Positions 4,279 through 16,707 are shown, numbered from the stretch's first letter. The stretch: 64,000 nucleotides of DNA from Terriglobales bacterium (GCA_963700175.1 CAVOWN010000015.1:275475-339474), one strand, 5' to 3'. A program made the numbers and translations. Notes: generated by a model not told the origin, from the sequence alone.

Positions 4279-7200
4279 ATGAAACAGCCGCTAAAGTCCA
4301 GAACATGGCGCGTAGTCCCAATTCTCCTGGTTTGTCTCGGGCTGCCCGCGATTGTGTCCGCGCAACGGGCAACTTTATTGGGTACGGTCGACGACCCCAA
4401 TGGAGCGGTGATTCCGGGTGTGAACATTACCCTGCTGAATCTTGACCAGGGTCTGGAGCGCTCAGCCACTACCAGCGAGAACGGTTACTACACTGTGCCG
4501 TTACTTCAGCCGGGAAGGTATGTAGTGACGGCGCAGAAGACGGGTTTCGCTATCGCTGAGATCAGAGACATCATCCTTCACGTAGGAGACGTTCGCGTTT
4601 TAAACGTGAAACTCCAGGTGGGAGCCGTACCGGTTTCCGTTCAAGTTTCCGAAAAGTCGCAAACCGTCGAAACCGCCAGTTCAGCCCTGGGCGAAGTGGT
4701 GACTGGAGACGTGATCCGAGACGCGCCCCTCAATGGCCGTTATGTTCCGGATTTGGCCTTGCTTCAGCCGGGAGTAACGCCGGTTGACCCAGACGACCGC
4801 GGCCCCGGCAACTTCAATGTGGCCGGCAACCGAGAGGACTCGGTTGTCTACTTATTGGACGGTGGACTCAACAACGACCTCATCGATAATCGCGTGGTCT
4901 ACACTCCGAACCCGGATACCATTGCCGAATTCCGCGTACTGAGCAGCAACTATCCCGCCGAGTACGGTCGCAATTCGGGCGGCGTAATCACCATGGCCAC
5001 CAGGTCCGGCAGCAACCAATTGCATGGCAGCGTGTTCGACTTCCTGCGCAACGACGCCTTGGATGCCAACAGCTTTTTCAATAAAAACTCCGGCCTGCCG
5101 CGTGACGACCTGAAAAGAAACCAGTACGGTGGGACTCTAGGCGGCCCGGTGACCATTCCCGGACTTGTGGCCGGGAAGGACCATTACTTCTTTTTTGTGG
5201 GCTACCAGGGAGAACGGCAAGTCAACGTCCAATCCGTGCACAATGCTTCGACCTTTACCCCAACCGAGTTGAATGGAAATTTCTCCCAATCCGGCCCGAA
5301 CGGAGGGCCTGACCCCGGAGTGGCCAGCCTTTCTCCAGCAGTATCCGTTCTTCCAGCCGAACGCTTCGCTGGCCGCGCAAGCCATTATCGATCCCAATCG
5401 CATCAACCCGGTATCTCAGAATTACATTAAGTACGGACTCATTCCCACCTCGCCGACCGGTCTGCTGAGCTGGCAGGGACGGAACACCTACGATTACGAC
5501 GAATTGACTACCAGACTTGATTTGGACTTCAGCCCTAAAGACAAGCTGGCAGCTACGCTAGGCGTGGACTGGCTTAATGCCTTGACCCCACTCAATGGTT
5601 CCGGAGCCACGGTCCCCGGATACTCGGAGAATTCCAGCGAGAAAGATTATTTTGCGAATTTCAACTACATTCACATTTTCTCGCCAACCCTACTGAACGA
5701 ATTCCGCGTGACTGTCGAGCGCAGCAATGATCAGGCGCTGAATCCCACAACTCAATTGCCCGGCCCCTCCGCCCTGGGGATCAGCGTCACCCCCGACTTA
5801 ACCACGGGCCCAACCAATCTGGTATTCGACACGGGATTGGAAATCGGCTTCAGCACCCAGGGCCCGCAGCGCATCAGGGACAACACATACAGCTTCGGCG
5901 ACACACTCACATGGATCCGGGGGAAGCACAATCTCAAGTTCGGCGGAGGCTTCTCCGATTTTCAAAACAACACCTTCTTCGCATTCACCGTCGACGGTCA
6001 ATTCGAATACCTGGGAGCCGGTGGCATTGGCTCGCAAAACTCCTACGCCGACTTTCTTTTGGGATTACCGCTGGAATACACGCAATCGTCCGCCGCTCCC
6101 TCGAACGTGCGCAGCAAGTTTACTTACGGATTCGCCCAGGATGAATGGCGCTTCCGTTCGAACCTGGTGTTGACCGCAGGTTTGCGATATGAGTACAGCA
6201 CCCCAAAGCTGGATACCGAAGGGCGAACTTTCTCGATCATTCCCGGAGACCAGTCTCACGTCTTCATCAATGCACCCGTGGGGATGGTTTTTCCTGGAGA
6301 TCCCGGCGCACCGCGGGGAGTGAATTTTCCCGACAAGAACAACTGGGCGCCACGCCTCGGATTCGCATGGGACCCCCGTGGAGACGGCAAAACCAGCTTG
6401 CGCGGAGCGTTCGGCGTCTTTTACGACATCCTGAAAGCCGAGGACAATTTACAGTTCAACGGGCAGCCGCCATTCTATGCCAGCGCCGGTCTGTTCTATT
6501 CACCTCCGTCGGGTCCTGAGCCGAATTACATGTCGCAGCCATTCGTCGCCGCAGGAGCGGAAAATCCATTTCCCTCCGGCCATGCCCCTCCAAATCTTAA
6601 CTTTGGGGCCGCCGGATATTTGCCGATCGGCGCCTCCACCAGCGTGTTCGTGGTCGACCCTCACCTGCGCACGCCTTACACCTATCAATATCATCTGACC
6701 CTGCAACATGAGATAGCCAAGGAAACCATCGTTGAAGCGAGTTATGTGGGCAGCAGTTCTCACGGGCTCACCGCCTTGCAGGACGTAAATCCTTTTGTGC
6801 TTGGGACCTACAACCGTGTGCTGAACCTGACGCCCGGCAACCAGACCTGCACCGTAGAGGATGCCAGTGCGTGCAGCTTTGCCAGCTTGTACGAATTCCG
6901 CAATGTGAGCGCAGCTGACTACAACGGTTTGCTCACCAGCCTGCAGAAGCAACTCTCGGGCGATGGGCCTTTCGGACGGTCCTATTTCACGCTCGCGTAT
7001 ACCTTCTCGCACGACATCGACAATGCCTCCGGATTCGTAAATCGCAACAATGTTGTCCCTTCGTACCAGACGGGGCTACTCCGGGCTTCCGCCGACATGG
7101 ATCTGCGCCACCGCGTCGTCTTCAGCGGAGGGTGGGAACTTCCGTTCGACCGCCTGTCGATGTCCGCATCGAAAAAGCTGACCCGTGGGTGGAAGTTGTT

Positions 7201-7753
7201 TCCGATTGTGAGTTGGCGCAGCGGCTACCCACTGGACGTATTCGCCAACATTCCCGCCGATTTCAACTTTGCCAGCCCGGGCCCGTCCGCCGCGGGTGAC
7301 GCGGGACTGGTGCGTGCCAACTTGATCGGGCGCATCGGCAGTTATGATCCGCATAACGCGCAGACTATTGCAGGAGTGAGCGGCTACTACTGGTTTAATC
7401 CCACCAGCTTTTCCACGGCGCAGTGCCCGCCCGCTCCCACCAACTGCCAGCCCAGTTCCAGCGTCTTTCCTAATGACGCGCAGGCGGTAAGCGATCCGTC
7501 TGTTCGCACCTACGGCACGCTACCGCGGAATTATTTCCGCGGGCCGGGCGTTTATAACATCAATCTGGCATTCTCCAAAACAACCCAGCTTTCGGACCGC
7601 TGGAAAATGGAGATTCGGGCCGACATCTTCAATCTGCTGAATAATGCTCAGTTCGAGAATCCTGATACCAACATCGGCAGTCCGACATTCGGTCAGGAGC
7701 TGAATACATACGATCCGCGGATCATCCAGCTTGCGTTGCGCTTGAGCTTCTGA
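4279..7753 (+). pseudogene. TonB-dependent receptor with N-terminal carboxypeptidase-regulatory-like domain, interrupted by a +1 nt frameshift near 5326-5330
   Basis: It has a signal peptide, a CarboxypepD_reg-like segment (GTVDDPNGAVIPGVNITL...GYYTVPLLQPGRYVV), a plug region, and a long beta-barrel ending in LALRLSF. The coding sequence is split between ORF 4279..5430 (frame 1) and ORF 5273..7753 (frame 2). The sensible protein continuity ...GPDPGVA / FLQQYPFFQPNASLAAQ switches frame at gccagcctttctc. Confidence 0.8.
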
Positions 7754-8714: not shown

Positions 8715-8735
8715 GTGGTATGGTGGTATGACCAC
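8715..8735. promoter_or_regulatory. candidate GntR/FadR-type operator upstream of the aldehyde dehydrogenase gene
   Basis: The sequence GTGGTATG GTGGTATG ACCAC contains the perfect palindrome GTGGT-ATG-ACCAC (8723-8735). This fits the t.GT-N-AC.a pattern known for GntR-family operators. It lies about 70 nt upstream of the ATG at 8806, in an AT-rich intergenic region. Confidence 0.35.
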
Positions 8736-8805: not shown

Positions 8806-10176
8806 ATGGCGATTGCAACCACTAACCCGGCCACCGGAAAAGTCGAAAAGAAATTCGATGCCCTAACCGACGCGCAGATCGAGCAAAAGCTTCAACTGGC
8901 CGCCAAGACTTTCTCCACCTATCGAAACGTCCCGTTCGCGGAGCGGGCACGGCTCATGTTGAAGGCTGCGGATCTTTTTGAAGCTGAGAAAGAACAGAAT
9001 GCTCGCAAAATGACGACCGAAATGGGAAAAACTTACCGGTCGGCATTGGATGAAGCCGCCAAATGCGCCCTTGCCTGCCGCTACTATGCCGAAAACGCCG
9101 AGAAATTTCTGGCCGATGAAATCGTAAACACCTCCGCCAAGAAGAGCTTCATTCGCTATCAGCCGATCGGCGTCATTCTCGCGGTCATGCCCTGGAATTT
9201 CCCATTTTGGCAAGTCGTGCGCTTTGCCGCGCCGGCACTCATGGCGGGAAATATTGGGCTGCTGAAACATGCCTCGAATGTTCCGCAATGCGCTCTCGCC
9301 ATTGAAGATACCTTCCGCCGCGCCGGTTTCCCGGAAGGCGCATTTCAGACCTTGCTCATAGGAGCCGACAAAGTTGACGGCATCCTGAACGATCCGCGGG
9401 TTGTCGCCGCCACGCTTACGGGCAGCGAACAAGCGGGTATCAAAGTGGGAATTGGCGCGGCGCAGCGCATCAAGAAGGTCGTCCTGGAGCTCGGCGGAAG
9501 CGATCCGTTCATCGTGATGCCGAGTGCGAACCTGGACGAAGCCATTGCCACCGCCGTCAAAGCGAGGATCTTCAACAATGGACAATCCTGCATAGCGGCT
9601 AAGCGCTTTATTGTGGCGGAGTCGATTGCGAAGGAATTTACCGGCAAGTTTGTCAGCAAGATGGCGGCGCTGAAGGTGGGCGATCCGTTTGATGAAAAGA
9701 CTGAACTTGGGCCGCTGGCAACCAAGGACGGTGTGGCGGACCTTGACCGAGATGTGAAGAGAACCGTTGCCGAGGGAGCGAAAGTGCTCACCGGAGGCAA
9801 ACCGTTGGAGGGCGACGGATTTTACTATGCGCCGACCGTGCTGGCGAACATCCCGAAAACATCTCCGGCCTACCGGGAGGAGTTATTTGGACCGGTGGCG
9901 AGCATCTTCGTGGTGAAAAATGTCGACGAAGCCATTCAGACTGCCAATGACAGCCGTTTTGGCCTGGGCGCCAGCGCCTGGACGAATGACGACAAGGAGC
10001 GCGACCGGTTCATCAACGAACTCGAATCTGGGATGGTTTTTATTAACAAGATGGTATCTTCCGACCCCAGGCTGCCGTTTGGGGGGGTAAAGCAATCGGG
10101 CCATGGCCGAGAGTTGGGGCCCTTTGGAATCAGAGAATTCACGAATATCAAGACGATTTGGATTGAGTCGAATTAG
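8806..10176 (+). CDS. NAD(P)-dependent aldehyde dehydrogenase, succinate-semialdehyde dehydrogenase-like (456 aa)
   Basis: It shows the aldehyde dehydrogenase fold, with catalytic Glu in VLELGGSDP and catalytic Cys in NNGQSCIAAKRF. The size and N-terminus (TTNPATG...) match the short SSADH subgroup. A GGAGG Shine-Dalgarno precedes the ATG. Confidence 0.8.
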   Translation: MAIATTNPATGKVEKKFDALTDAQIEQKLQLAAKTFSTYRNVPFAERARLMLKAADLFEAEKEQNARKMTTEMGKTYRSALDEAAKCALACRYYAENAEKFLADEIVNTSAKKSFIRYQPIGVILAVMPWNFPFWQVVRFAAPALMAGNIGLLKHASNVPQCALAIEDTFRRAGFPEGAFQTLLIGADKVDGILNDPRVVAATLTGSEQAGIKVGIGAAQRIKKVVLELGGSDPFIVMPSANLDEAIATAVKARIFNNGQSCIAAKRFIVAESIAKEFTGKFVSKMAALKVGDPFDEKTELGPLATKDGVADLDRDVKRTVAEGAKVLTGGKPLEGDGFYYAPTVLANIPKTSPAYREELFGPVASIFVVKNVDEAIQTANDSRFGLGASAWTNDDKERDRFINELESGMVFINKMVSSDPRLPFGGVKQSGHGRELGPFGIREFTNIKTIWIESN

Positions 10177-10184
10177 CTGAGTCG

Positions 10185-10211
10185 TGGTACTATGGTTTGG
10201 CCATCATACCA
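10185..10211. promoter_or_regulatory. candidate autoregulatory GntR operator (inverted repeat)
   Basis: TGGTACTATGG-tttgg-CCATCATACCA matches in 9 of 11 arm positions. It shares the TGGTAT/ATACCA core with the 8715-8735 site and lies 26 nt upstream of the GntR start codon. Confidence 0.35.
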
Positions 10212-10236
10212 ATGATCCACTTTTGAGGTTTCTCTA

Positions 10237-10959
10237 GTGTATAAAGCTGTCCGCACGTCGCGGCTGTATGAACAAATCGTGCAGCAGATCGAAGAGTCGA
10301 TCATGAATGGGACCCTGAAACCGGGGGATCAATTGCCTGCGGAGCGGGAGCTGGCGGAGAAATTTGGAGTCAGCCGGACGGCGGTCCGGGAAGCGGTGAA
10401 GGCCCTGCGCGAGCGAGGTCTGGTGGAGGCATTTTCCGGGCGGGGCACTTTCATCACCAACGGCACTGGTCAGGCCATCCGACAATCATTGGATTTTATG
10501 ATCCGAAGCGACGTGATCGATGGCTCGGCGAACCTGGCGGAACTGCGGGCGATCCTGGAACCGGAGATTGCGGGCCTTGCGGCAATGCGCGCGGACGAGG
10601 GACATCTGGCGGGAATGCGGGAAGCTTTCTCGGTGATGGAAACTTCGGGCAACGACTCGGAGGCGTTCATTGAGGCCGATTTGGATTTTCATCTGACGCT
10701 CGCGGAAGCGGCGGCGAATCCTCTGGTGCTGTCTCTGATTGATTCTATTGTGGGATTGCTTCGCGAGCAGCGCATACAGATTTACCACGTTGAAGGCGGC
10801 GCCGAGCGTGGGCAATTTCATCACCGACGTATTCTGGAAGCAATCGCAGCAAAAGACGCAATCCGGGCCCGCGCGGCGATGCGGGCGCATCTCGACCAGA
10901 TTCGAGAGGACTATAAGGCAAGCCAGGAGCAAGGCGAACTGACGAAGGCGAATTCTTGA
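10237..10959 (+). CDS. GntR family transcriptional regulator, FadR subfamily (winged HTH + FCD domain)
   Basis: The N-terminal HTH reads LPAERELAEKFGVSRTAVREAVKAL. An all-helical C-terminal FCD-like domain carries His residues (DLDFHLTLAEAA ... FHHRRILEAI). The start codon is GTG. Confidence 0.85.
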   Translation: MYKAVRTSRLYEQIVQQIEESIMNGTLKPGDQLPAERELAEKFGVSRTAVREAVKALRERGLVEAFSGRGTFITNGTGQAIRQSLDFMIRSDVIDGSANLAELRAILEPEIAGLAAMRADEGHLAGMREAFSVMETSGNDSEAFIEADLDFHLTLAEAAANPLVLSLIDSIVGLLREQRIQIYHVEGGAERGQFHHRRILEAIAAKDAIRARAAMRAHLDQIREDYKASQEQGELTKANS

Positions 10960-10960
10960 T

Positions 10961-11124
10961 AGTGGTGCAGTTTGGAAGAGGGAGCGAGCAAACGCGCGTC
11001 TGTCGTTTCGCAAAGAACGCGAAACCTCGCACGGCTCGCCCAGATTCCTTCGAGTGCGCTCAGGACAGGCTCTTCATTTCGCAAAAAAGCGCTCGTTTGA
11101 GGCTGACAACCAAACTGCACCACT
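10961..11124. repeat. 164-nt intergenic element closed by a perfect 15-bp long-range inverted repeat
   Basis: AGTGGTGCAGTTTGG (10961-10975) is the exact reverse complement of CCAAACTGCACCACT (11110-11124). An internal hairpin is present (gtttcgc-aaagaac-gcgaaac). The motif tttcgcaaa.aa.gcg occurs twice. Confidence 0.5.
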
Positions 11125-11138
11125 GAAAGCGAGGAACA

Positions 11139-12020
11139 GTGGCCAAAATAGGATTCATTGGTCTGGGAACGATGGGCGGGAACATGGTGGCGCGGCTGTT
11201 GAGCAAGGGCCACAGCGTGACCGGCTACAACCGGACCCGTGCCAAAGCGCGATCATTGGTCGATAAGGGCATGACGCTGGCGGAGACGCCACGCGCCGTC
11301 GCGGAGGTATCGGATTTTGTTTTTTCGATGGTGACCAATTCGGCCGCGCTCACGGCGGTGACTGACGGTCCGGACGGGTTGTTGGCCGGCTTGAACAAGG
11401 GAAAGCTGTACATCGACATGAGCACGGTGAGTCCGGCGGTAAGTCGGGCGCTGGCTGAAAAAGTCCGCGCCAAAGGGGCGGACATGGTCGACGCTCCGGT
11501 CTCGGGCAGCGTGATCACGCTCCAAGAAGGCAAACTGTCGGTGATGGTGGGCGGTAGCAAGGAAACGTTTGAGAGGGTGAAGCCCATTCTTTTGGATATC
11601 GGCCCGAAAGTGACACACGTTGGCGACAATGGGCTGGCCTTGGCGATGAAGATCGGCGTGAACCTGGCGCTGGCGGTGCAGATGCTGGCATTTTCAGAAG
11701 GCGTTCTGCTCGCCGAGAAAAGTGGCATCAAGCGCGAAACGGCGGTGGACGTAATGATCCACAGCGCGGTGGCTTCTCCGATGATTGTTTATCGCGGACC
11801 GTTCATTCTTCAGCAACCGGAAGAGGCTTGGTTCGACGTGAACATGATGCAGAAAGACATGCTGCTGGCGATGGAACTGGGTCGCCAATTAGATGTGCCG
11901 GTGCCCACGACCGCGGTAACGAACGAATTCCTCACTGCAGCGCGGGGAATGGGAATGGCGAAGCTGGATTTTGCCTGCGTGTTCGATGTCCTGGCGCAGA
12001 TGTCGGGAGTTAAGAAATGA
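11139..12020 (+). CDS. NAD(P)-dependent beta-hydroxyacid dehydrogenase (3-hydroxyisobutyrate / 2-hydroxy-3-oxopropionate reductase family)
   Basis: It has the N-terminal Rossmann motif IGFIGLGTMGGNM and the expected length of 293 aa. The start is GTG preceded by gagga. The stop overlaps the next gene as ATGA. Confidence 0.8.
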   Translation: MAKIGFIGLGTMGGNMVARLLSKGHSVTGYNRTRAKARSLVDKGMTLAETPRAVAEVSDFVFSMVTNSAALTAVTDGPDGLLAGLNKGKLYIDMSTVSPAVSRALAEKVRAKGADMVDAPVSGSVITLQEGKLSVMVGGSKETFERVKPILLDIGPKVTHVGDNGLALAMKIGVNLALAVQMLAFSEGVLLAEKSGIKRETAVDVMIHSAVASPMIVYRGPFILQQPEEAWFDVNMMQKDMLLAMELGRQLDVPVPTTAVTNEFLTAARGMGMAKLDFACVFDVLAQMSGVKK

Positions 12021-13015
12021 ACACTGCGGTTGACCGAACCGGGGCGAATTCTGGGGTCGATCCCCAAAAGTGGCTGCGGATTTACCGGCAGATGTTGAGC
12101 ATCCGGTTGTTCGAAGAGCACGTGAACGATCTCTACACACGAGCGCTGATGCCGGGCTTGGCCCATCTTTACATTGGGCAAGAGGCGGTCGCAGTCGGCG
12201 TTTGTGAGGCGTTGCGAAAAGACGATTACATTACCAGCACGCATCGCGGGCATGGTCACTGTCTAGCGAAAGGTGCGGCCCCGGACCGCATGTTCGCCGA
12301 ATTGCTGGGCAAAGAAGCGGGGTATTGCAAGGGCAAGGGCGGCTCGATGCACATTGCCGATCCGGCTACAGGGAATTTGGGCGCGAATGCGATTGTAGGC
12401 GGCAGCCTGGGAATTGCGACCGGCGCGGCGTTGGCAGCGAAGCGTGTGGGTACAGACCGCGTGGCTGTCTCCTTTTTTGGAGAAGGCGCGCTGGGTCAGG
12501 GGTTGCTGTATGAAGTGATGAATCTGGCGACCCTGTGGAAGCTTCCGGTCATATACGTCTGCGAAAACAATCAATACAACGAGTACACACATTTTTCCGA
12601 AACGACCGCGGGCGACATCGCCGCGCGCGCAACGGCTTTTGGAGTGCACGCCGAGACGGTGGATGGCCAGGACGTTCGCGCAGTTCATGCGGTCGCGTCG
12701 AAGCTAGTGCAGCGAGCCCGTAGCGGCGGGGGTCCGGCGTTCCTGTTGTGCAATACATATCGTTATCACGGCCACCACGTTGGCGATATCAATCGCGAAT
12801 ATTACCGGACCAAGAAAGAAGAACAGCTTTGGAAGATCGACCGCGACCCGGTAAAGCTTTTTGCAGCGTGGATGCTTGAGCAGGCAATAGCGGACGCAAA
12901 AGCGCTGGAAACCGTGCAGACTGAGGTTCAATCGGAAATGGATGCAGCCGTACAATTTGCAGTTTCGGCGGCTTATCCGAAAGTGGAGGAAGTGGACCAG
13001 GATGTCTACGCCTGA
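12017..13015 (+). CDS. thiamine-diphosphate-dependent 2-oxoacid/acetoin dehydrogenase E1 component, alpha subunit
   Basis: The TPP-binding motif reads FFGEGALGQG...VIYVCENNQY, and the length is 332 aa. The gene is translationally coupled to both neighbours. Confidence 0.85.
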   Translation: MNTAVDRTGANSGVDPQKWLRIYRQMLSIRLFEEHVNDLYTRALMPGLAHLYIGQEAVAVGVCEALRKDDYITSTHRGHGHCLAKGAAPDRMFAELLGKEAGYCKGKGGSMHIADPATGNLGANAIVGGSLGIATGAALAAKRVGTDRVAVSFFGEGALGQGLLYEVMNLATLWKLPVIYVCENNQYNEYTHFSETTAGDIAARATAFGVHAETVDGQDVRAVHAVASKLVQRARSGGGPAFLLCNTYRYHGHHVGDINREYYRTKKEEQLWKIDRDPVKLFAAWMLEQAIADAKALETVQTEVQSEMDAAVQFAVSAAYPKVEEVDQDVYA

Positions 13016-14003
13016 TTCGAAGCATCGCGAACTGACATTCGCGCAGGCCATTCGCGAGGCGCTAGCGGAAGAGATGCGCCGGGATGCGCGCGTCTGCATT
13101 TTTGGGGAAGATGTAGCGGAAGCGGGAACGCCATTCAAAGTATTGAGCGGATTAGTGGAGGAGTTTGGCGTCGATCGCGTGATGGATACGCCGATTTCGG
13201 AAGCGGGCTTTACCGGGATTGGCGTAGGCGCTGCGATGACCGGGCTGCGACCGGTGGTCGACATCATGTTTGGAGATTTCATCACACTGACGATGGACCA
13301 GATGGTGAACCAGGCCGCGAAGGTGCACTACATGTCGGGCGGAACGTGGAAGGTCCCGATGGTGATGCGCACGACGCTGGGCGCCACTCGGCGTTCCGCG
13401 GCGCAACATTCGCAATCTCTGCATGCCTGGTTCAGTCATGTGCCGGGATTGAAGGTCGTTATGCCCTCGACCCCTTACGATGCCAAGGGCCTGCTGAAGA
13501 CTGCGATTCGGGATGACAATCCGGTGGTCTTCTTCGAAGACAAGATGATGTACAAGTTGAAGGGGCCGGTACCAGAGGGAGAATATACGATTCCCCTGGG
13601 GCTGGCTGACGTGAAGCGCGAAGGCGATGACATTACGCTGGTCGCCACAAGCAGCATGGTGCAAGTGGCGCTGGGCGCGGCGGATATGCTGGCAGGAGAT
13701 GGCATCAGCGCGGAAGTGGTTGATCCGCGCACCATGTGGCCGCTGGACGAGAAGACGATGATCGATTCGGCGAAGAAGACATCCCGAGTTATCGTCCTGG
13801 ATGAAGGATATGAGCGGTATGGAGTGACGGCAGAGATTGCCGCAGTGATCGCCAGCGGCGCCTTCTACGATTTGGATGCTCCCGTGAAACGGATGGGAGC
13901 TATGCATGTTCCGATTCCGTTTTCGCCGCCGTTAGAGGATGTAACGGTGCCGACGGAAAAAACTGTATTCGAGGCGGCCCGCAAACTTTGCGGCCGCTCT
14001 TAA
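13002..14003 (+). CDS. 2-oxoacid/acetoin dehydrogenase E1 component, beta subunit (transketolase-like)
   Basis: MSTPDSKHRELTFAQAIREALAEEM...DTPISEAGFTGIGVGAA is a typical E1 beta N-terminus. I chose the ATG at 13002, which overlaps the E1 alpha stop. The track ORF starts at 12942. Confidence 0.85.
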   Translation: MSTPDSKHRELTFAQAIREALAEEMRRDARVCIFGEDVAEAGTPFKVLSGLVEEFGVDRVMDTPISEAGFTGIGVGAAMTGLRPVVDIMFGDFITLTMDQMVNQAAKVHYMSGGTWKVPMVMRTTLGATRRSAAQHSQSLHAWFSHVPGLKVVMPSTPYDAKGLLKTAIRDDNPVVFFEDKMMYKLKGPVPEGEYTIPLGLADVKREGDDITLVATSSMVQVALGAADMLAGDGISAEVVDPRTMWPLDEKTMIDSAKKTSRVIVLDEGYERYGVTAEIAAVIASGAFYDLDAPVKRMGAMHVPIPFSPPLEDVTVPTEKTVFEAARKLCGRS

Positions 14004-14018
14004 CGAATCTGGAGGTGA

Positions 14019-15368
14019 GTGATGGCTCTGCCGACTTATGGAACGATGGCGGTGGATTGGGAGCAGCGGATCGACTTCGATCGACTGCGGCGTGAGCGCC
14101 TGGCGCGGGCTAAAGAGCTGCTGGCAAAATCCGAGATGGGCGCGCTGCTTTGCTTCGACATGAACAATGTGCGCTATCTGACGGCCACGCACATCGGCAC
14201 ATGGGCGCAGGACAAGGCGAACCGCTTCACTCTGCTGCCGCAAAATGACGAACCGATTTTGTGGGACTTCGGATCGGCGGCCAAGCATCACCAATTACAT
14301 TGTCCGTGGTTGGGAGACCGGTCGCGTCCTGGGATCTCGATGCTGCGCGGGACGATGTCGCCGGAGATGGGCCGGGCGGAAGATGTGGCGAAGAAAATCC
14401 GCATTGAACTCGAAATGCGCGGCCTGCACAAAGAACCTGTTGGCATCGACATTGTTGAGTTGCCAGTGTTATTTGCTTTACAGAAGGAAGGCATCACGGT
14501 GGTCGACGGGCAGCAATTAATGTCCGAAGCACGGGTCATCAAGACGCGGGATGAAATCGCTCTGCTCAACCAATCAGCGTCGATGGTGGATGCCGCTTAC
14601 GACGAACTCTATCGCGCAATGAAGCCCGGAATGCGCGAAAACGAAGCGGTGGGACTGGTGAGCAAGGTGCTTTACGATCTGGGGTCGGAGTATGTGGAAG
14701 CTGTGAATGCGATTTCCGGGGAGCGTTGTAATCCGCACCCACACGTATTTTCGGACCGCATTCTGCGTCCGGGCGATCCGGTGTACTACGACATTTTGCA
14801 CTCCTACATGGGATACCGCACTTGCTACTACCGTTGCTTCACCATCGGCTACGGCTCGCACGCGATGGTGGACGCGTACAAGCGGTGCCGGGAATATCTG
14901 GACGCGGCGATCGAACTGGTGCGACCGGGACGTACCACGGCAGAAATCGCAGCGGTATGGCCGAAGGCGCAGGATTTTGGCTTTCCGAATGAGGAAGCTT
15001 GTTTTGCTTTGCAATACGGTCATGGCATTGGGCTGGCAATTTGGGAGAAGCCGGTCATCAGTCGGCTGGTGTCGTTCGAGCATCCGCAGGAAATCAAGCC
15101 GGGCATGGTATTTGCGCTGGAGACGTTCTGGCCTTCGACGGATGGATGGAGCGCGGCGCGAATTGAAGAAGAGATCGTGGTGACAGAAACCGGGCACGAA
15201 GTGATTACACGCTTCCCGGCGGAAGAGCTGTTGGTAGCGGGAGCCCACTACTTCACAGTGAATGGGCCGCTGGCAACGACGCGAGAAACGGAGAACGCTC
15301 CCAGCCAGCGCGTGGTGGAGATGATTGAAGAAAGTTCGAAGAAGGAAAGGGTAGGAGTGTCAGATTAA
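14019..15368 (+). CDS. M24-family (creatinase/prolidase/DddP-like pita-bread fold) hydrolase, 449 aa
   Basis: It has a creatinase/prolidase-type N-domain and a C-terminal pita-bread domain with GDPVYYD, YGHGIGL, FALETF and RIEEEIVVTE motifs. The start is GTG 14019 or ATG 14022, after GGAGG. Confidence 0.75.
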   Translation: MMALPTYGTMAVDWEQRIDFDRLRRERLARAKELLAKSEMGALLCFDMNNVRYLTATHIGTWAQDKANRFTLLPQNDEPILWDFGSAAKHHQLHCPWLGDRSRPGISMLRGTMSPEMGRAEDVAKKIRIELEMRGLHKEPVGIDIVELPVLFALQKEGITVVDGQQLMSEARVIKTRDEIALLNQSASMVDAAYDELYRAMKPGMRENEAVGLVSKVLYDLGSEYVEAVNAISGERCNPHPHVFSDRILRPGDPVYYDILHSYMGYRTCYYRCFTIGYGSHAMVDAYKRCREYLDAAIELVRPGRTTAEIAAVWPKAQDFGFPNEEACFALQYGHGIGLAIWEKPVISRLVSFEHPQEIKPGMVFALETFWPSTDGWSAARIEEEIVVTETGHEVITRFPAEELLVAGAHYFTVNGPLATTRETENAPSQRVVEMIEESSKKERVGVSD

Positions 15369-15483
15369 TTTGGCACGCAACCTGGGAAGTTTTGTGGGCA
15401 GGGGTAAAGCGGTGGGCGGTTTCCCGCCGTCGTTGATTCATTTCAGAACGCAGTCGACATTCGATGAAAGAGTTCAGCTAACT

Positions 15484-16668
15484 ATGGCTTTCAGTGTAGT
15501 CATGCCTGCCCTGGAGATGGCGCAGGAGACAGGCAAACTGGTGTCGTGGATGAAGAAGGAAGGCGATGCGGTTGCCAAAGGCGAGCCCTTGCTCGAGATT
15601 GAAACCGACAAGGCTGTCATGGAGATTGAATCGCCTGCGGATGGAATTCTAGCGGGGGTGAAGGCACAGCCTGGCGCTGTGGTACCGGTTGGGCAAACGA
15701 TTGCGTGGATTGTGCGGCCGGGCGAAGCGCCTCCAGTGGAATCGACAGCGCCCGCAGAGACTGGCCGATATCAGAGCGAAACTAAGCAGTCCGCGGTGGC
15801 GGCGGAGGTGCGGCGGACAGAACCAGTGGCGTCGACCGAGGCAAGAATCTCTCCTAAGGCGCGGCGGCTTGCGAAGGAGCACGGGGTTGATATCGCGACA
15901 TTGAATGGTTCCGGAGCGGAGGGGGAGATTGTAGCGTCCGACATTCTGGCGGCGGCTGAGCTAGAACGAGCCGAGGCGGCAGTCGGCAGTGAAGCTCCGA
16001 GTGCGATTGGCCGGCTGATGGCGGAGCGTACGACGCAGAGCTGGACAACTGTCCCACATTTTTTTGTCACACGAGATGTCGATGCAAGCGCACTTCTGAA
16101 AGCCCGCGAATTGGAACTGGAGAAAATCGAGAAATCACATGCGGTGCGAGTGACGCATACGGACCTGCTGGTTGCGCTGATTGCGAAGGCTCTGAGTGGA
16201 AATCCGCAACTTAATAGCAGCTGGGTGGACGGGAAGGTGCGGACCAATCCGGCGGTTAACATTGGGATCGCGATGGCCGTCGATGACGGGGTGGTCGCGC
16301 CGGTCATTCCGAATGCAGACAAGATTTTACTGGCGGAAATCGCGATTCAGCGGCATGAATTGAGTGAGCGAGCGCGGTCGGGACGATTGCGTCCTGCGGA
16401 CATCTCCGGGGGGACTTTCACCATCAGCAATCTTGGCATGTTCGATGTCGACGCTTTCACGGCGATTATTAGTCCGCCGCAGGTTGCGATTCTGGCGGTG
16501 GGAGCGATAGCGGAGCGAGTGATCGCGGTGAACGGCCAGCCTGTAGTTCGACCGATGATGAGCATTACACTCTCCAGCGACCATCGCGTAGTCGATGGCG
16601 CGCGCGCGGCAGCTTTTCTGCGGGATGTTGTAAAAAATCTTCGCGAGCCGGAGAAATGGCTGCGATGA
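15484..16668 (+). CDS. dihydrolipoamide acyltransferase (E2) of a 2-oxoacid/acetoin dehydrogenase complex
   Basis: It has one lipoyl domain (LEIETDKAVMEIESP) and a subunit-binding domain (ISPKARRLAKEHGVDI). The catalytic domain carries the SSDHRVVDGA motif. I chose the ATG at 15484; the ORF is open from 15370. Confidence 0.85.
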   Translation: MAFSVVMPALEMAQETGKLVSWMKKEGDAVAKGEPLLEIETDKAVMEIESPADGILAGVKAQPGAVVPVGQTIAWIVRPGEAPPVESTAPAETGRYQSETKQSAVAAEVRRTEPVASTEARISPKARRLAKEHGVDIATLNGSGAEGEIVASDILAAAELERAEAAVGSEAPSAIGRLMAERTTQSWTTVPHFFVTRDVDASALLKARELELEKIEKSHAVRVTHTDLLVALIAKALSGNPQLNSSWVDGKVRTNPAVNIGIAMAVDDGVVAPVIPNADKILLAEIAIQRHELSERARSGRLRPADISGGTFTISNLGMFDVDAFTAIISPPQVAILAVGAIAERVIAVNGQPVVRPMMSITLSSDHRVVDGARAAAFLRDVVKNLREPEKWLR

Positions 16669-16707
16669 CGATGCCGGCGCAACGGTGCGCGTGTGCGCCG
16701 GCATCGT
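16668..16707. terminator. strong hairpin between convergent genes (candidate bidirectional terminator)
   Basis: Perfect 14-bp arms acgatgccggcgca / tgcgccggcatcgt flank a 12-nt loop. The hairpin starts at the E2 stop codon and lies about 45 nt from the stop of the convergent DUF4340 gene. There is no clean U tract. Confidence 0.55.

Follow-up and report, generated by a model that had tools for sequence, protein, structure and literature searches.

We analysed a 64,000-nucleotide stretch of a Terriglobales bacterium genome (GCA_963700175.1, CAVOWN010000015.1:275475-339474; hereafter the window) and found that a seven-gene operon at positions 8806–16668 belongs to a GntR-controlled, horizontally mobile catabolic module. 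The core of the module encodes a HIBADH-family enzyme, both subunits of a thiamine diphosphate (ThDP)-dependent E1, an enzyme of the M24 (pita-bread) fold in which a cysteine replaces an aspartate of the metal site, and a lipoyl E2. An initial annotation, made from the sequence alone, had called this an uncharacterized catabolic cluster, and so it stands: no paper describing the cluster was found in the literature searched. We tentatively propose that the module degrades a hydroxyhydroquinone-type polyphenol without oxygenases, by NADPH-dependent reduction, retro-Claisen ring opening by the M24 enzyme and acyloin cleavage to acetyl-CoA and succinate semialdehyde, the latter being oxidized to succinate. 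Built largely by analogy, the scheme is possible rather than probable. What is new is that a module absent from that literature now has a concrete proposed mechanism that can be tested, and several cultured hosts.

Gene content and distribution of the module

Seven open reading frames (ORFs) lie closely packed on one strand of the window, with domains assigned by Pfam and NCBIfam searches:

8806–10176, + strand: aldehyde dehydrogenase (ALDH; PF00171), nearest to NADP-dependent succinate-semialdehyde dehydrogenase (SSADH-like)
10237–10959, + strand: GntR-family regulator with an FCD effector domain (PF00392 and PF07729)
11139–12020, + strand: HIBADH-family (beta-hydroxyacid) dehydrogenase/reductase (PF03446 and PF14833) with an NADP-type NRT motif
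12017–13015, + strand: ThDP-dependent E1 alpha subunit (PF00676) with a ThDP motif
13002–14003, + strand: E1 beta subunit (PF02779 and PF02780)
14022–15368, + strand: M24-fold enzyme (PF00557) of a Cys-for-Asp family (motif GYRTCYYR)
15484–16668, + strand: E2 dihydrolipoyl acyltransferase with one lipoyl, one E3-binding and one catalytic domain (PF00364, PF02817 and PF00198)
16669–16705, + strand: terminator-like hairpin with a perfect, GC-rich 12-bp stem, read from the sequence directly after E2

The domains, tight packing, overlaps, M24 spacing and hairpin named in the initial annotation were all present. The E1 alpha start overlaps the HIBADH stop as ATGA. E1 beta starts at an ATG at 13002, preceded by GGAGGA, and overlaps E1 alpha by 14 nucleotides (nt); a longer E1 beta ORF from 12942 has no support among orthologues. 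The M24 gene was called from a GTG at 14019, and the next codon, the ATG at 14022, gives the MALPTYG start of all orthologues, which places the start 15–18 nt beyond the E1 beta stop. E2 starts at an ATG at 15484. Motifs are intact in ALDH (ELGG and GQSC), E1 alpha (GEG..NN) and E2 (the lipoyl lysine in ETDKA, and DHRVVDG).

E1 alpha with its ThDP motif, E1 beta, and E2 with a lipoyl lysine, an E3-binding domain and a DHRxxDG motif together make up a 2-oxoacid or acetoin dehydrogenase complex. The complex is not pyruvate dehydrogenase (PDH) proper, as both scored subunits fall under the PDH equivalog cut-offs: E1 alpha, nearest to human PDH E1 alpha, reaches 345 bits against 394 for TIGR03182, and E2 reaches 283 bits against 445 for TIGR01349. 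The genome holds three further E1 sets, and the E1/E2 of the operon is therefore an extra complex. The cluster has no E3 gene, in agreement with the initial annotation. Two lipoamide dehydrogenase genes elsewhere in the genome (C15:357418 and C6:110010) score above the TIGR01350 cut-off, and E3 comes from outside the operon.

The operon shares with the acetoin dehydrogenase system (AcoA/AcoB/AcoC/AcoL) and with heteromeric PDH the ThDP E1 alpha/beta pair, a lipoyl E2 with an E3-binding domain and a dehydrogenase gene upstream. It also shares with acetoin dehydrogenase a linked ALDH, as expected where an acyloin is split into an acyl-CoA and an aldehyde. It differs from both in its sub-cut-off PDH scores, the lack of an E3 gene and a GntR rather than an AcoR regulator, and from aco, pdh and bkd operons in the M24 gene between E1 beta and E2; we know of no described operon of these three types with that arrangement. 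A true 2-oxoacid dehydrogenase yields CO2 and no aldehyde. By analogy, an acetoin-type (acyloin) E1/E2 with a succinate-semialdehyde end point, as suggested earlier, still appears to be the best fit.

Scores for the ALDH are highest for the SSADH model NF006915 (697.9 bits, cut-off 730), well above all other ALDH models. The nearest solved structures to the HIBADH protein are glyoxylate/succinic-semialdehyde reductases (3PEF, 3PDU, 3DOJ and 3CKY), and its top NCBIfam match is tartronate-semialdehyde reductase. Among 44 HIBADH cluster members read, 43 carry an NRT(R/K) motif and the remaining one NRS; the NRT motif is NADP-type in the 6PGDH/beta-HAD family.

Co-occurrence was tallied in 41 genomes, namely the source genome and 40 relatives, with one unpublished genome (G006) counted only as lacking an orthologue. 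M24 orthologues (90–96% identity) occur in 8 of the 40 relatives, from seven genera. Seven of these carriers keep the order ALDH-GntR-HIBADH-E1 alpha-E1 beta-M24-E2, and the eighth (L015) has the same order with no ALDH detected; the flanks differ. E1 beta orthologues (84–92% identity) are found in exactly the eight M24 carriers, and the other 32 relatives have only paralogues (39–50% identity). The initial annotation had allowed that M24 might prove absent from otherwise identical operons of relatives. This is not the case: because no genome among the 41 has M24 without the orthologous E1 beta, or the reverse, M24 is an integral member of the module and not a chance insertion. In a same-genus relative (L014, G003:C3, 7672–8722), E1 beta is split by an in-frame TAG (residues 6–215 and 210–352); the split marks either a pseudogene or an error in the assembly of this 84%-complete genome.

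The module is a sparse accessory trait in the phylum: of 300 high-quality genomes sampled evenly across it, only seven carry the gene besides the source genome. A wider scan, limited to one genome per species, returned 80 loci, and the core HIBADH-E1 alpha-E1 beta-M24-E2 is present in most of them, across at least eight phyla. Carriers include Acidobacteriota (Terriglobia, Vicinamibacteria and Bryobacteraceae), Chloroflexota, Dormibacterota, Rokubacteria, Actinomycetota, Deinococcota, delta-proteobacteria, one Sysuimicrobiota metagenome-assembled genome (MAG) and Alicyclobacillus sp. ALC3. The E1-M24-E2 arrangement, for which a neighbourhood search had been suggested, is thus conserved, and its recurrence in relatives and in most of these loci across many phyla is far beyond chance. 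M24 is the slowest-evolving gene of the module, keeping 68–92% identity across loci while E2 drops to 43–63%; identities to a Chloroflexi locus (L073) are 84% for M24, 78% for E1 beta, 69% for HIBADH, 66% for E1 alpha, 56% for GntR and 47% for E2. The conserved core is an NADP-type HIBADH, a heteromeric ThDP E1, a Cys-type M24 and a lipoyl E2, to which an SSADH-like ALDH has been added in this family of Acidobacteria; ALDH is an accessory member, found in 23 of the 80 loci.

Three MAGs labelled Dormibacterota or Cybelea (L050, L064 and L066) carry clusters whose M24 is 82–90% identical to that of the window. L050 and L064 also have GntR and HIBADH, and L064 has ALDH, whereas L066 has only E1 alpha-E1 beta-M24-E2. 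These clusters reflect either mis-binning or recent transfer.

The Cys-type M24 protein and its relatives

The M24 protein has the pita-bread domain of prolidase (PF00557, 124 bits, residues 182–390). Its top sequence match in the PDB is DddP, a dimethylsulfoniopropionate (DMSP) lyase (87 bits), with DoeA structures at 46 bits and the best creatinase at 34.7 bits. A structure model (pLDDT 91.8) is also closest in fold to DddP (TM-score 0.77–0.80, 22–23% identity), followed by prolidases (0.65–0.70), DoeA and creatinase. The likeness to DddP (PDB 4S00, 4RZY and 4B28) extends over the full length, including the N-terminal domain. DddP has six invariant metal ligands (Asp295, Asp297, Asp307, His371, Glu406 and Glu421), an invariant Tyr366 and a proposed catalytic base, Asp377 (PMC4108388). 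When aligned to 4S00, D258 of the M24 protein corresponds to Asp295, and H335, E368 and E383 to the conserved His371, Glu406 and Glu421, whereas Asp297 has no counterpart and C269 replaces Asp307. Asp377 is replaced by Ile341, and Tyr366 by Glu326 in a gapped stretch.

Model scores agree. The M24 protein reaches 116.5 bits against the NCBIfam DddP model NF043017 (cut-off 600), and 62–67 bits against DoeA and PepQ models (cut-offs 575–630; TIGR02993, 66 against 613; NF038259, 62 against 575). The complete Asp, Asp, His, Glu, Glu dinuclear site of prolidases is also lacking, the second (bridging) Asp being Cys269. Because ligands and base are changed and the scores lie far below the cut-offs, the protein is neither DddP nor a prolidase: the metal and catalytic residues and the hidden Markov model score rule out the DMSP lyase, and the cysteine at the bridging Asp and the low PepQ score rule out the prolidase. 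DoeA and creatinase are not supported either, with scores far below the cut-offs and weak PDB matches. The setting differs from that of DddP as well: the carriers come from terrestrial peat and soil, and M24 is partnered by E1/E2 instead of genes for acrylate handling. Cys269 lies in the motif GY[RK][TS]CYYR and hardly varies across 34 aligned family members or across most of 80 metagenome loci. By these residues, the protein is a member of an uncharacterized Cys-type M24 family, which is very large (640 50%-cluster representatives at E < 1e-30).

Gene context is lacking for the nearest of these representatives, which lie on short metagenome contigs. More distant members stand beside GFO/Iso_dh genes, in M24-E1 alpha-E1 beta-E2 clusters with CoA-transferases, with HMGL-like/2-Hacid_dh or 3HCDH genes, with cupin, GcvH and LipA, with Tct/PrpD, or, on plasmid pHV4 of Haloferax volcanii, with a ThDP enzyme, an oxidoreductase and a cupin. 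From their domains, these contexts nearly always suggest hydroxy- or oxo-acid chemistry. The Cys-type M24 of the H. volcanii locus (L204, pHV4 531441–541791) is 35% identical and lies under an IclR regulator together with the ThDP enzyme (single-chain), the NAD(P) oxidoreductase, the cupin, EthD proteins and hydantoinase A/B genes; in a model archaeon, this locus offers a tractable entry to the wider family.

In a distant Cys-type clade, eight metagenome loci have compact 3HCDH-M24-SDR-BKACE operons. Their BKACE protein is nearest to 3,5-dioxohexanoate (triacetate):acetyl-CoA transferase (356 bits against a cut-off of 430), and two of the loci add a protein with a DAPG/phloretin-hydrolase domain, a thiolase and an acetate-kinase-like gene. 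The phloroglucinol pathway of Clostridium scatologenes comprises the SDR reductase PGR, the cyclohydrolase DPGC, the 3-hydroxy-5-oxohexanoate dehydrogenase TfD, the BKACE lyase TAL, a thiolase and kinases; DPGC is a Mn enzyme of the ‘cyclase’ family, and dearomatization followed by retro-Claisen cleavage is a general principle (PMC10470551). As far as gene families can tell, the distant-clade operons match this set, with the Cys-type M24 where the ring-opening cyclohydrolase belongs. We infer that the Cys-type M24 may be a non-orthologous replacement of DPGC, and that its scaffold may be able to open a reduced phenolic ring by retro-Claisen hydrolysis.

The scheme that we propose for the window follows the logic of the C. 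scatologenes pathway (NADPH-dependent dearomatizing reduction, divalent-metal retro-Claisen ring opening, oxidation of a hydroxy-oxo-acid and a second C–C cleavage to an acyl-CoA), and SDR, 3HCDH and TAL-like BKACE genes surround the sister clade of its M24. By contrast, the window cluster has none of the PGR, DPGC, TfD and TAL families in Pfam searches; it has a HIBADH-type protein, the Cys-type M24 and E1/E2, and would end in an aldehyde. A scheme that ends in an aldehyde fits a 1,2,4-substituted ring better than a 1,3,5-substituted one.

Plasmid searches found M24 orthologues in cultured bacteria. On a plasmid of Paenarthrobacter sp. R1 (NZ_CP127116.1), an M24 63% identical to that of the window follows genes for an acyl-CoA-dehydrogenase-family (sadB-like) monooxygenase, the flavin reductase SulR/SadC, ECH, a regulator and RidA, and is followed by a HIBADH-like gene, SDR and LpdA. 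SadB converts 4-aminophenol to 1,2,4-trihydroxybenzene before mineralization, and neighbours of sadABC have no proven function (PMC5693940). The plasmid therefore places M24, HIBADH-like, SDR and LpdA genes beside a sadB-like gene and sulR/sadC of the Microbacterium/Paenarthrobacter sad cluster (SadA, SadB and SadC); the window differs in having no sad genes. On 42-kb Paenarthrobacter plasmids, the sole catabolic cargo consists of E2, a fused E1 alpha-beta, VOC, an oxidoreductase, an amidase, a Liv ABC importer, a broken alpha/beta hydrolase, RidA, cupin, ECH, a HIBADH-like gene, M24 and a flavin reductase. We tentatively take the oxidoreductase to be the plasmid-borne type II sadB of PMC10873849. 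One of the 42-kb plasmids, from P. ureafaciens SD-1 (L202, 14635–15964), also carries a Pycsar-type defence pair (nucleotide cyclase and effector) and a zeta toxin gene.

Plasmid pP92_e of Phaeobacter inhibens has the order SDR-M24-E1 alpha-E1 beta-lipoyl protein-SSADH-like ALDH-E2-LpdA, facing a sugar-type ABC importer and ThuA. Its E1 alpha and E1 beta are 61% and 71% identical to those of the window. The E3 gene, LpdA, thus lies within the operon in Phaeobacter and next to M24 in Paenarthrobacter. Tunturibacter and Alicyclobacillus sp. ALC3 are further cultured carriers.

Several other genes recur beside the module. An FrsA-like alpha/beta hydrolase is found in four lineages, beside a TonB-dependent receptor in Acidobacteria and at the operon end in Chloroflexi and Alicyclobacillus. 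Its top PDB match is 2,6-dihydroxy-pseudo-oxynicotine (DHPON) hydrolase (2JBW, E 3e-41), followed by AntI and Ayg1; all three set free a polyhydroxy-aromatic ring by C–C hydrolysis. In Acidobacteria the FrsA-like protein carries a signal peptide. The receptor/FrsA-like pair flanks the operon in most Acidobacteria and is unlinked in the source genome, where it lies on contig C3:110230–115062 (L119:7207–12096) directly after an IclR regulator, pcaH/G, pcaB and a pcaD-pcaC fusion, genes of the protocatechuate branch of the beta-ketoadipate pathway. Aldehyde oxidizers recur as the ALDH already mentioned and as a Mo-aldehyde oxidoreductase (6 loci), together with Amidohydro_2 (the hydroxybenzoate-decarboxylase/lactonase family), Zn-dependent alcohol dehydrogenase (Zn-ADH), OYE reductase, VOC, cupin, a second creatinase-like M24 and RidA. 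Flavin ‘amine oxidase’ neighbours are CrtO/phytoene-desaturase-like and were set aside as probably unrelated.

Uptake genes vary by locus and include Liv-type ABC importers, DctA directly after E2 (five loci), a TRAP system and an MFS transporter. In several acidobacterial loci (L030–L060, at about 12.6–14.0 kb), DctA (612 bits, above the cut-off) or Zn-ADH follows E2 directly; neither follows E2 in the window.

A possible polyphenol pathway and its alternatives

The substrate of the proposed pathway would be a trihydroxybenzene-type polyphenol, most likely hydroxyhydroquinone (1,2,4-benzenetriol). Because of its meta-hydroxyls, hydroxyhydroquinone should be reducible like phloroglucinol, and the HIBADH-type protein would carry out an NADPH-dependent dearomatizing reduction to 4-hydroxycyclohexane-1,3-dione; in other lineages an SDR, Zn-ADH or OYE enzyme encoded beside M24 could take this step. 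The Cys-type M24 would then open the ring by retro-Claisen hydrolysis to 4-hydroxy-5-oxohexanoate, an acetoin-type acyloin (CH3-CO-CHOH-R). E1/E2(/E3) would split the acyloin, as acetoin dehydrogenase does, into acetyl-CoA and succinate semialdehyde, and the SSADH-like ALDH would convert the latter to succinate. Upstream of these steps, the TonB-dependent receptor and a periplasmic DHPON-hydrolase-like C–C hydrolase may release the polyphenol from a plant compound in which it is acylated or esterified.

This scheme would employ every enzyme of the operon, and would account for the travelling of the SSADH-like ALDH with E1/E2 and for the NADPH-type features of HIBADH. An aldehyde product is suggested by the SSADH-like ALDH here and in the Phaeobacter operon, and by ALDH or Mo-aldehyde oxidoreductase genes in other lineages. 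Similarly, we propose HIBADH as a candidate dearomatizing reductase from its NADP motif and its nearest structures, which are NADPH-dependent semialdehyde reductases. Hydroxyhydroquinone in particular is suggested by the Paenarthrobacter sp. R1 plasmid, where M24 lies beside a gene like sadB, whose product forms this compound. Other support for a polyphenol substrate comes from the FrsA-like C–C hydrolase (adjacent to pca genes in the source genome), Amidohydro_2 and RNA fragments from peat and permafrost. The reductive hydroxyhydroquinone pathway is known only as enzyme activities, which take dihydro-hydroxyhydroquinone to acetate and a C4 product. Desulfovibrio inopinatus reportedly reduces hydroxyhydroquinone with NADH to the dihydro compound, yielding acetate and a co-product (Reichenbecher et al. 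2000), and Azoarcus anaerobius is said to cleave hydroxybenzoquinone with PDH-like components (Darley et al. 2007).

A broader form of the hypothesis, which we regard as rather doubtful, would make the Cys-for-Asp M24 proteins a second, so far unrecognized family of metal-dependent hydrolases that open the rings of reduced polyphenols by retro-Claisen cleavage. On that view, HIBADH-E1 alpha/beta-M24-E2(-ALDH) would supply the genes that the reductive hydroxyhydroquinone pathway has lacked, and the same module would complete the mineralization of the benzene ring in sulfonamide degraders.

Several observations weigh against a polyphenol pathway. To our knowledge, no HIBADH-family enzyme reduces a phenol, and HIBADH may instead oxidize the ring-opened hydroxy acid, which would leave the operon without an assigned reductase. 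The ring-opening role of M24 is drawn only from operon position by analogy, and the known ring opener (PMC10470551) belongs to the ‘cyclase’ family. The link to a DAPG hydrolase comes from two near-identical loci only. Among 41 long metagenome loci of distant family members, E1 adjoins M24 in only two and the other 39 are without E1/E2; the M24 family is therefore functionally diverse. The adjacency to sad genes could be hitch-hiking on a mobile island, because the Paenarthrobacter HIBADH-like and E1/E2 proteins are only paralogues of those of the window (28–36% identity). The sugar-type ABC importer and ThuA of Phaeobacter suggest a cyclitol- or sugar-like substrate there, and DctA after E2, Liv-type importers and RidA would fit an amino- or dicarboxylic-acid substrate.

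An alternative is that the substrate is not aromatic, but a cyclitol, a sugar acid or a vicinal-diol hydroxy acid. HIBADH or SDR would oxidize it to an acyloin or 2-oxoacid, M24 would act on this aliphatic or alicyclic intermediate as a hydrolase, hydratase or lyase, and E1/E2 would yield an acyl-CoA and an aldehyde. The Phaeobacter operon, with its orthologous E1 subunits, sugar importer, SDRs and ThuA, points in this direction, as do family members beside Iso_dh/GFO, HMGL-like/2-Hacid_dh and Tct transporter/PrpD genes, the five loci with DctA, a TRAP DctP gene in L107 and the tartronate-semialdehyde reductase match of HIBADH. However, a non-aromatic substrate leaves the recurrent DHPON-hydrolase-like hydrolase, Amidohydro_2, the sad/flavin-monooxygenase neighbourhood and the pca adjacency unexplained, and gives M24 a less specific chemistry than the analogy with the phloroglucinol operons. 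We consider it unlikely.

The initial annotation had read M24 as a creatinase- or DoeA-like C–N hydrolase of a small amidino, guanidino or amide compound or osmolyte, whose skeleton would be oxidized via a hydroxy acid, an oxo acid, an acyl-CoA and succinate semialdehyde. Every characterized non-peptidase M24 enzyme breaks C–N or C–S bonds, RidA adjoins M24 in three lineages, and an amidase, Liv-type amino-acid-like importers and, in L091, an aminotransferase lie nearby. Against this, no urease, urea-carboxylase, transaminase, deaminase or other urea-, ammonia- or amine-handling partner is conserved across the 80 loci, the defining residues of DddP, prolidase (including the bridging Asp) and DoeA are missing, the DoeA/PepQ and creatinase scores are low, and RidA next to sad genes is accounted for by quinone-imine chemistry. 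This reading now seems quite improbable. The comparative evidence favours ring opening at a C–C bond (retro-Claisen) with a reduced polyphenol or a cyclic dione as substrate, which we prefer because of the phloroglucinol-type operons of the sister clade, the sad adjacency, and the C–C hydrolase and aldehyde-oxidizer partners.

A role for the Cys-type M24 as an accessory or structural subunit of E1/E2, for example in E2 docking, or as a lipoamidase or lipoyl transferase acting through its conserved cysteine, would suit its exceptional conservation between phyla (84% against 47% for E2), its constant place beside E1 beta or E2 and a relative near GcvH and lipoyl synthase, but is very improbable given the 39 distant loci without E1/E2, its presence in BKACE operons, same-clade loci with no adjacent E1/E2 detected (L056 and L086, with HIBADH only; L067, with a paralogue-level E1 several kilobases away; and L096, with a 34%-identical HIBADH-like gene) and the retention of a full set of metal ligands (D, H, E, E) and of a fold of the substrate-tunnel type. 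Lipoyl-arm processing in particular is weakened by the rarity of E1 beside M24 in the long loci.

Other schemes were considered and set aside. Pantothenate catabolism (pantothenase, pantoate 4-dehydrogenase, aldopantoate dehydrogenase and ketoisovalerate dehydrogenase) is attractive for the acidobacterial seven-gene form, but ALDH lies outside the conserved core, there is no linked Iso_dh-type dimethylmalate dehydrogenase, E1 is PDH-like rather than BCKDH-like, and the literature searched gave no support. A sulfolactate/sulfopyruvate route lacks a sulfite exporter or desulfonating partner among the recurrent neighbours. Tartrate/oxaloglycolate and hydroxyadipate schemes are chemically possible, with nothing specific in their favour.

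If hydroxyhydroquinone is the substrate, peat and permafrost Acidobacteria, Chloroflexota and others could turn phenols derived from flavonoids or tannins into acetyl-CoA and succinate without oxygen. The ‘enzyme latch’ hypothesis holds that polyphenols keep carbon stored in anoxic peat, and an oxygenase-free trihydroxybenzene route in abundant Acidobacteria of peat and permafrost, with matches in RNA libraries from such sites, would bear directly on it. Hydrolysis of C–C bonds would be a new chemistry for the M24 fold, would give a function to a very large conserved family that is annotated everywhere as ‘Xaa-Pro aminopeptidase’, and would suggest a role for the unexplained genes beside sulfonamide-degradation (sad) genes. 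Even if the polyphenol reading is wrong, five genes shared as a unit by at least eight phyla lack a described function and are now tied to cultured, tractable hosts.

Regulation, RNA-library matches and flanking genes

The regulator has the N-terminal GntR winged helix-turn-helix and C-terminal FCD domain of the GntR/FadR subfamily, and its gene is kept at the same position in 42 of the 80 loci. A candidate TGT-N3-ACA-type palindrome is conserved in relatives. The non-coding features of the operon, none assigned to a strand, are:

8715–8735: candidate GntR/FadR-type operator, with the palindrome TGGTATGACCA at 8724–8734, about 70 nt upstream of the ALDH start
10185–10211: second candidate operator, TGGTA...TACCA, 26 nt upstream of the GntR gene
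10961–11124: 164-nt spacer between GntR and HIBADH, closed by a perfect 15-bp inverted repeat

TGGT-N3-ACCA occurs 30–110 nt upstream of ALDH in five of six relatives and upstream of GntR in three, and these palindromes fit putative operators of a FadR-class GntR regulator. The sequence is generic: a genome-wide regulon search was uninformative because it returned 103 copies, none of them directly upstream of the unlinked TonB-dependent receptor/FrsA pair.

RNA libraries from permafrost and peat contain contigs that differ from HIBADH, E1 alpha and M24 by 0–2 mismatches over 145–240 nt. The matches are consistent with in situ transcription of the operon and fall short of proving it, because carried-over DNA could give the same result. 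Peat and permafrost RNA-library contigs also cover 10960–11045 at higher depth (12.7 and 59.8), with 4–6 mismatches, and continue into unrelated sequence. This suggests that the spacer at 10961–11124 may be a member of a dispersed repeat family rather than an element specific to the operon. An Rfam search of the cluster, spacer included, matched no family.

Upstream of the cluster, at 4279–7753 of the window, two overlapping ORFs (383 and 826 amino acids) both have the CarboxypepD_reg/OMP_b-brl_4 architecture of TonB-dependent receptors, which is consistent with a single frameshifted receptor gene. On the 3' side of E2, the window continues with a DUF4340/GldG-like ABC module on the opposite strand.

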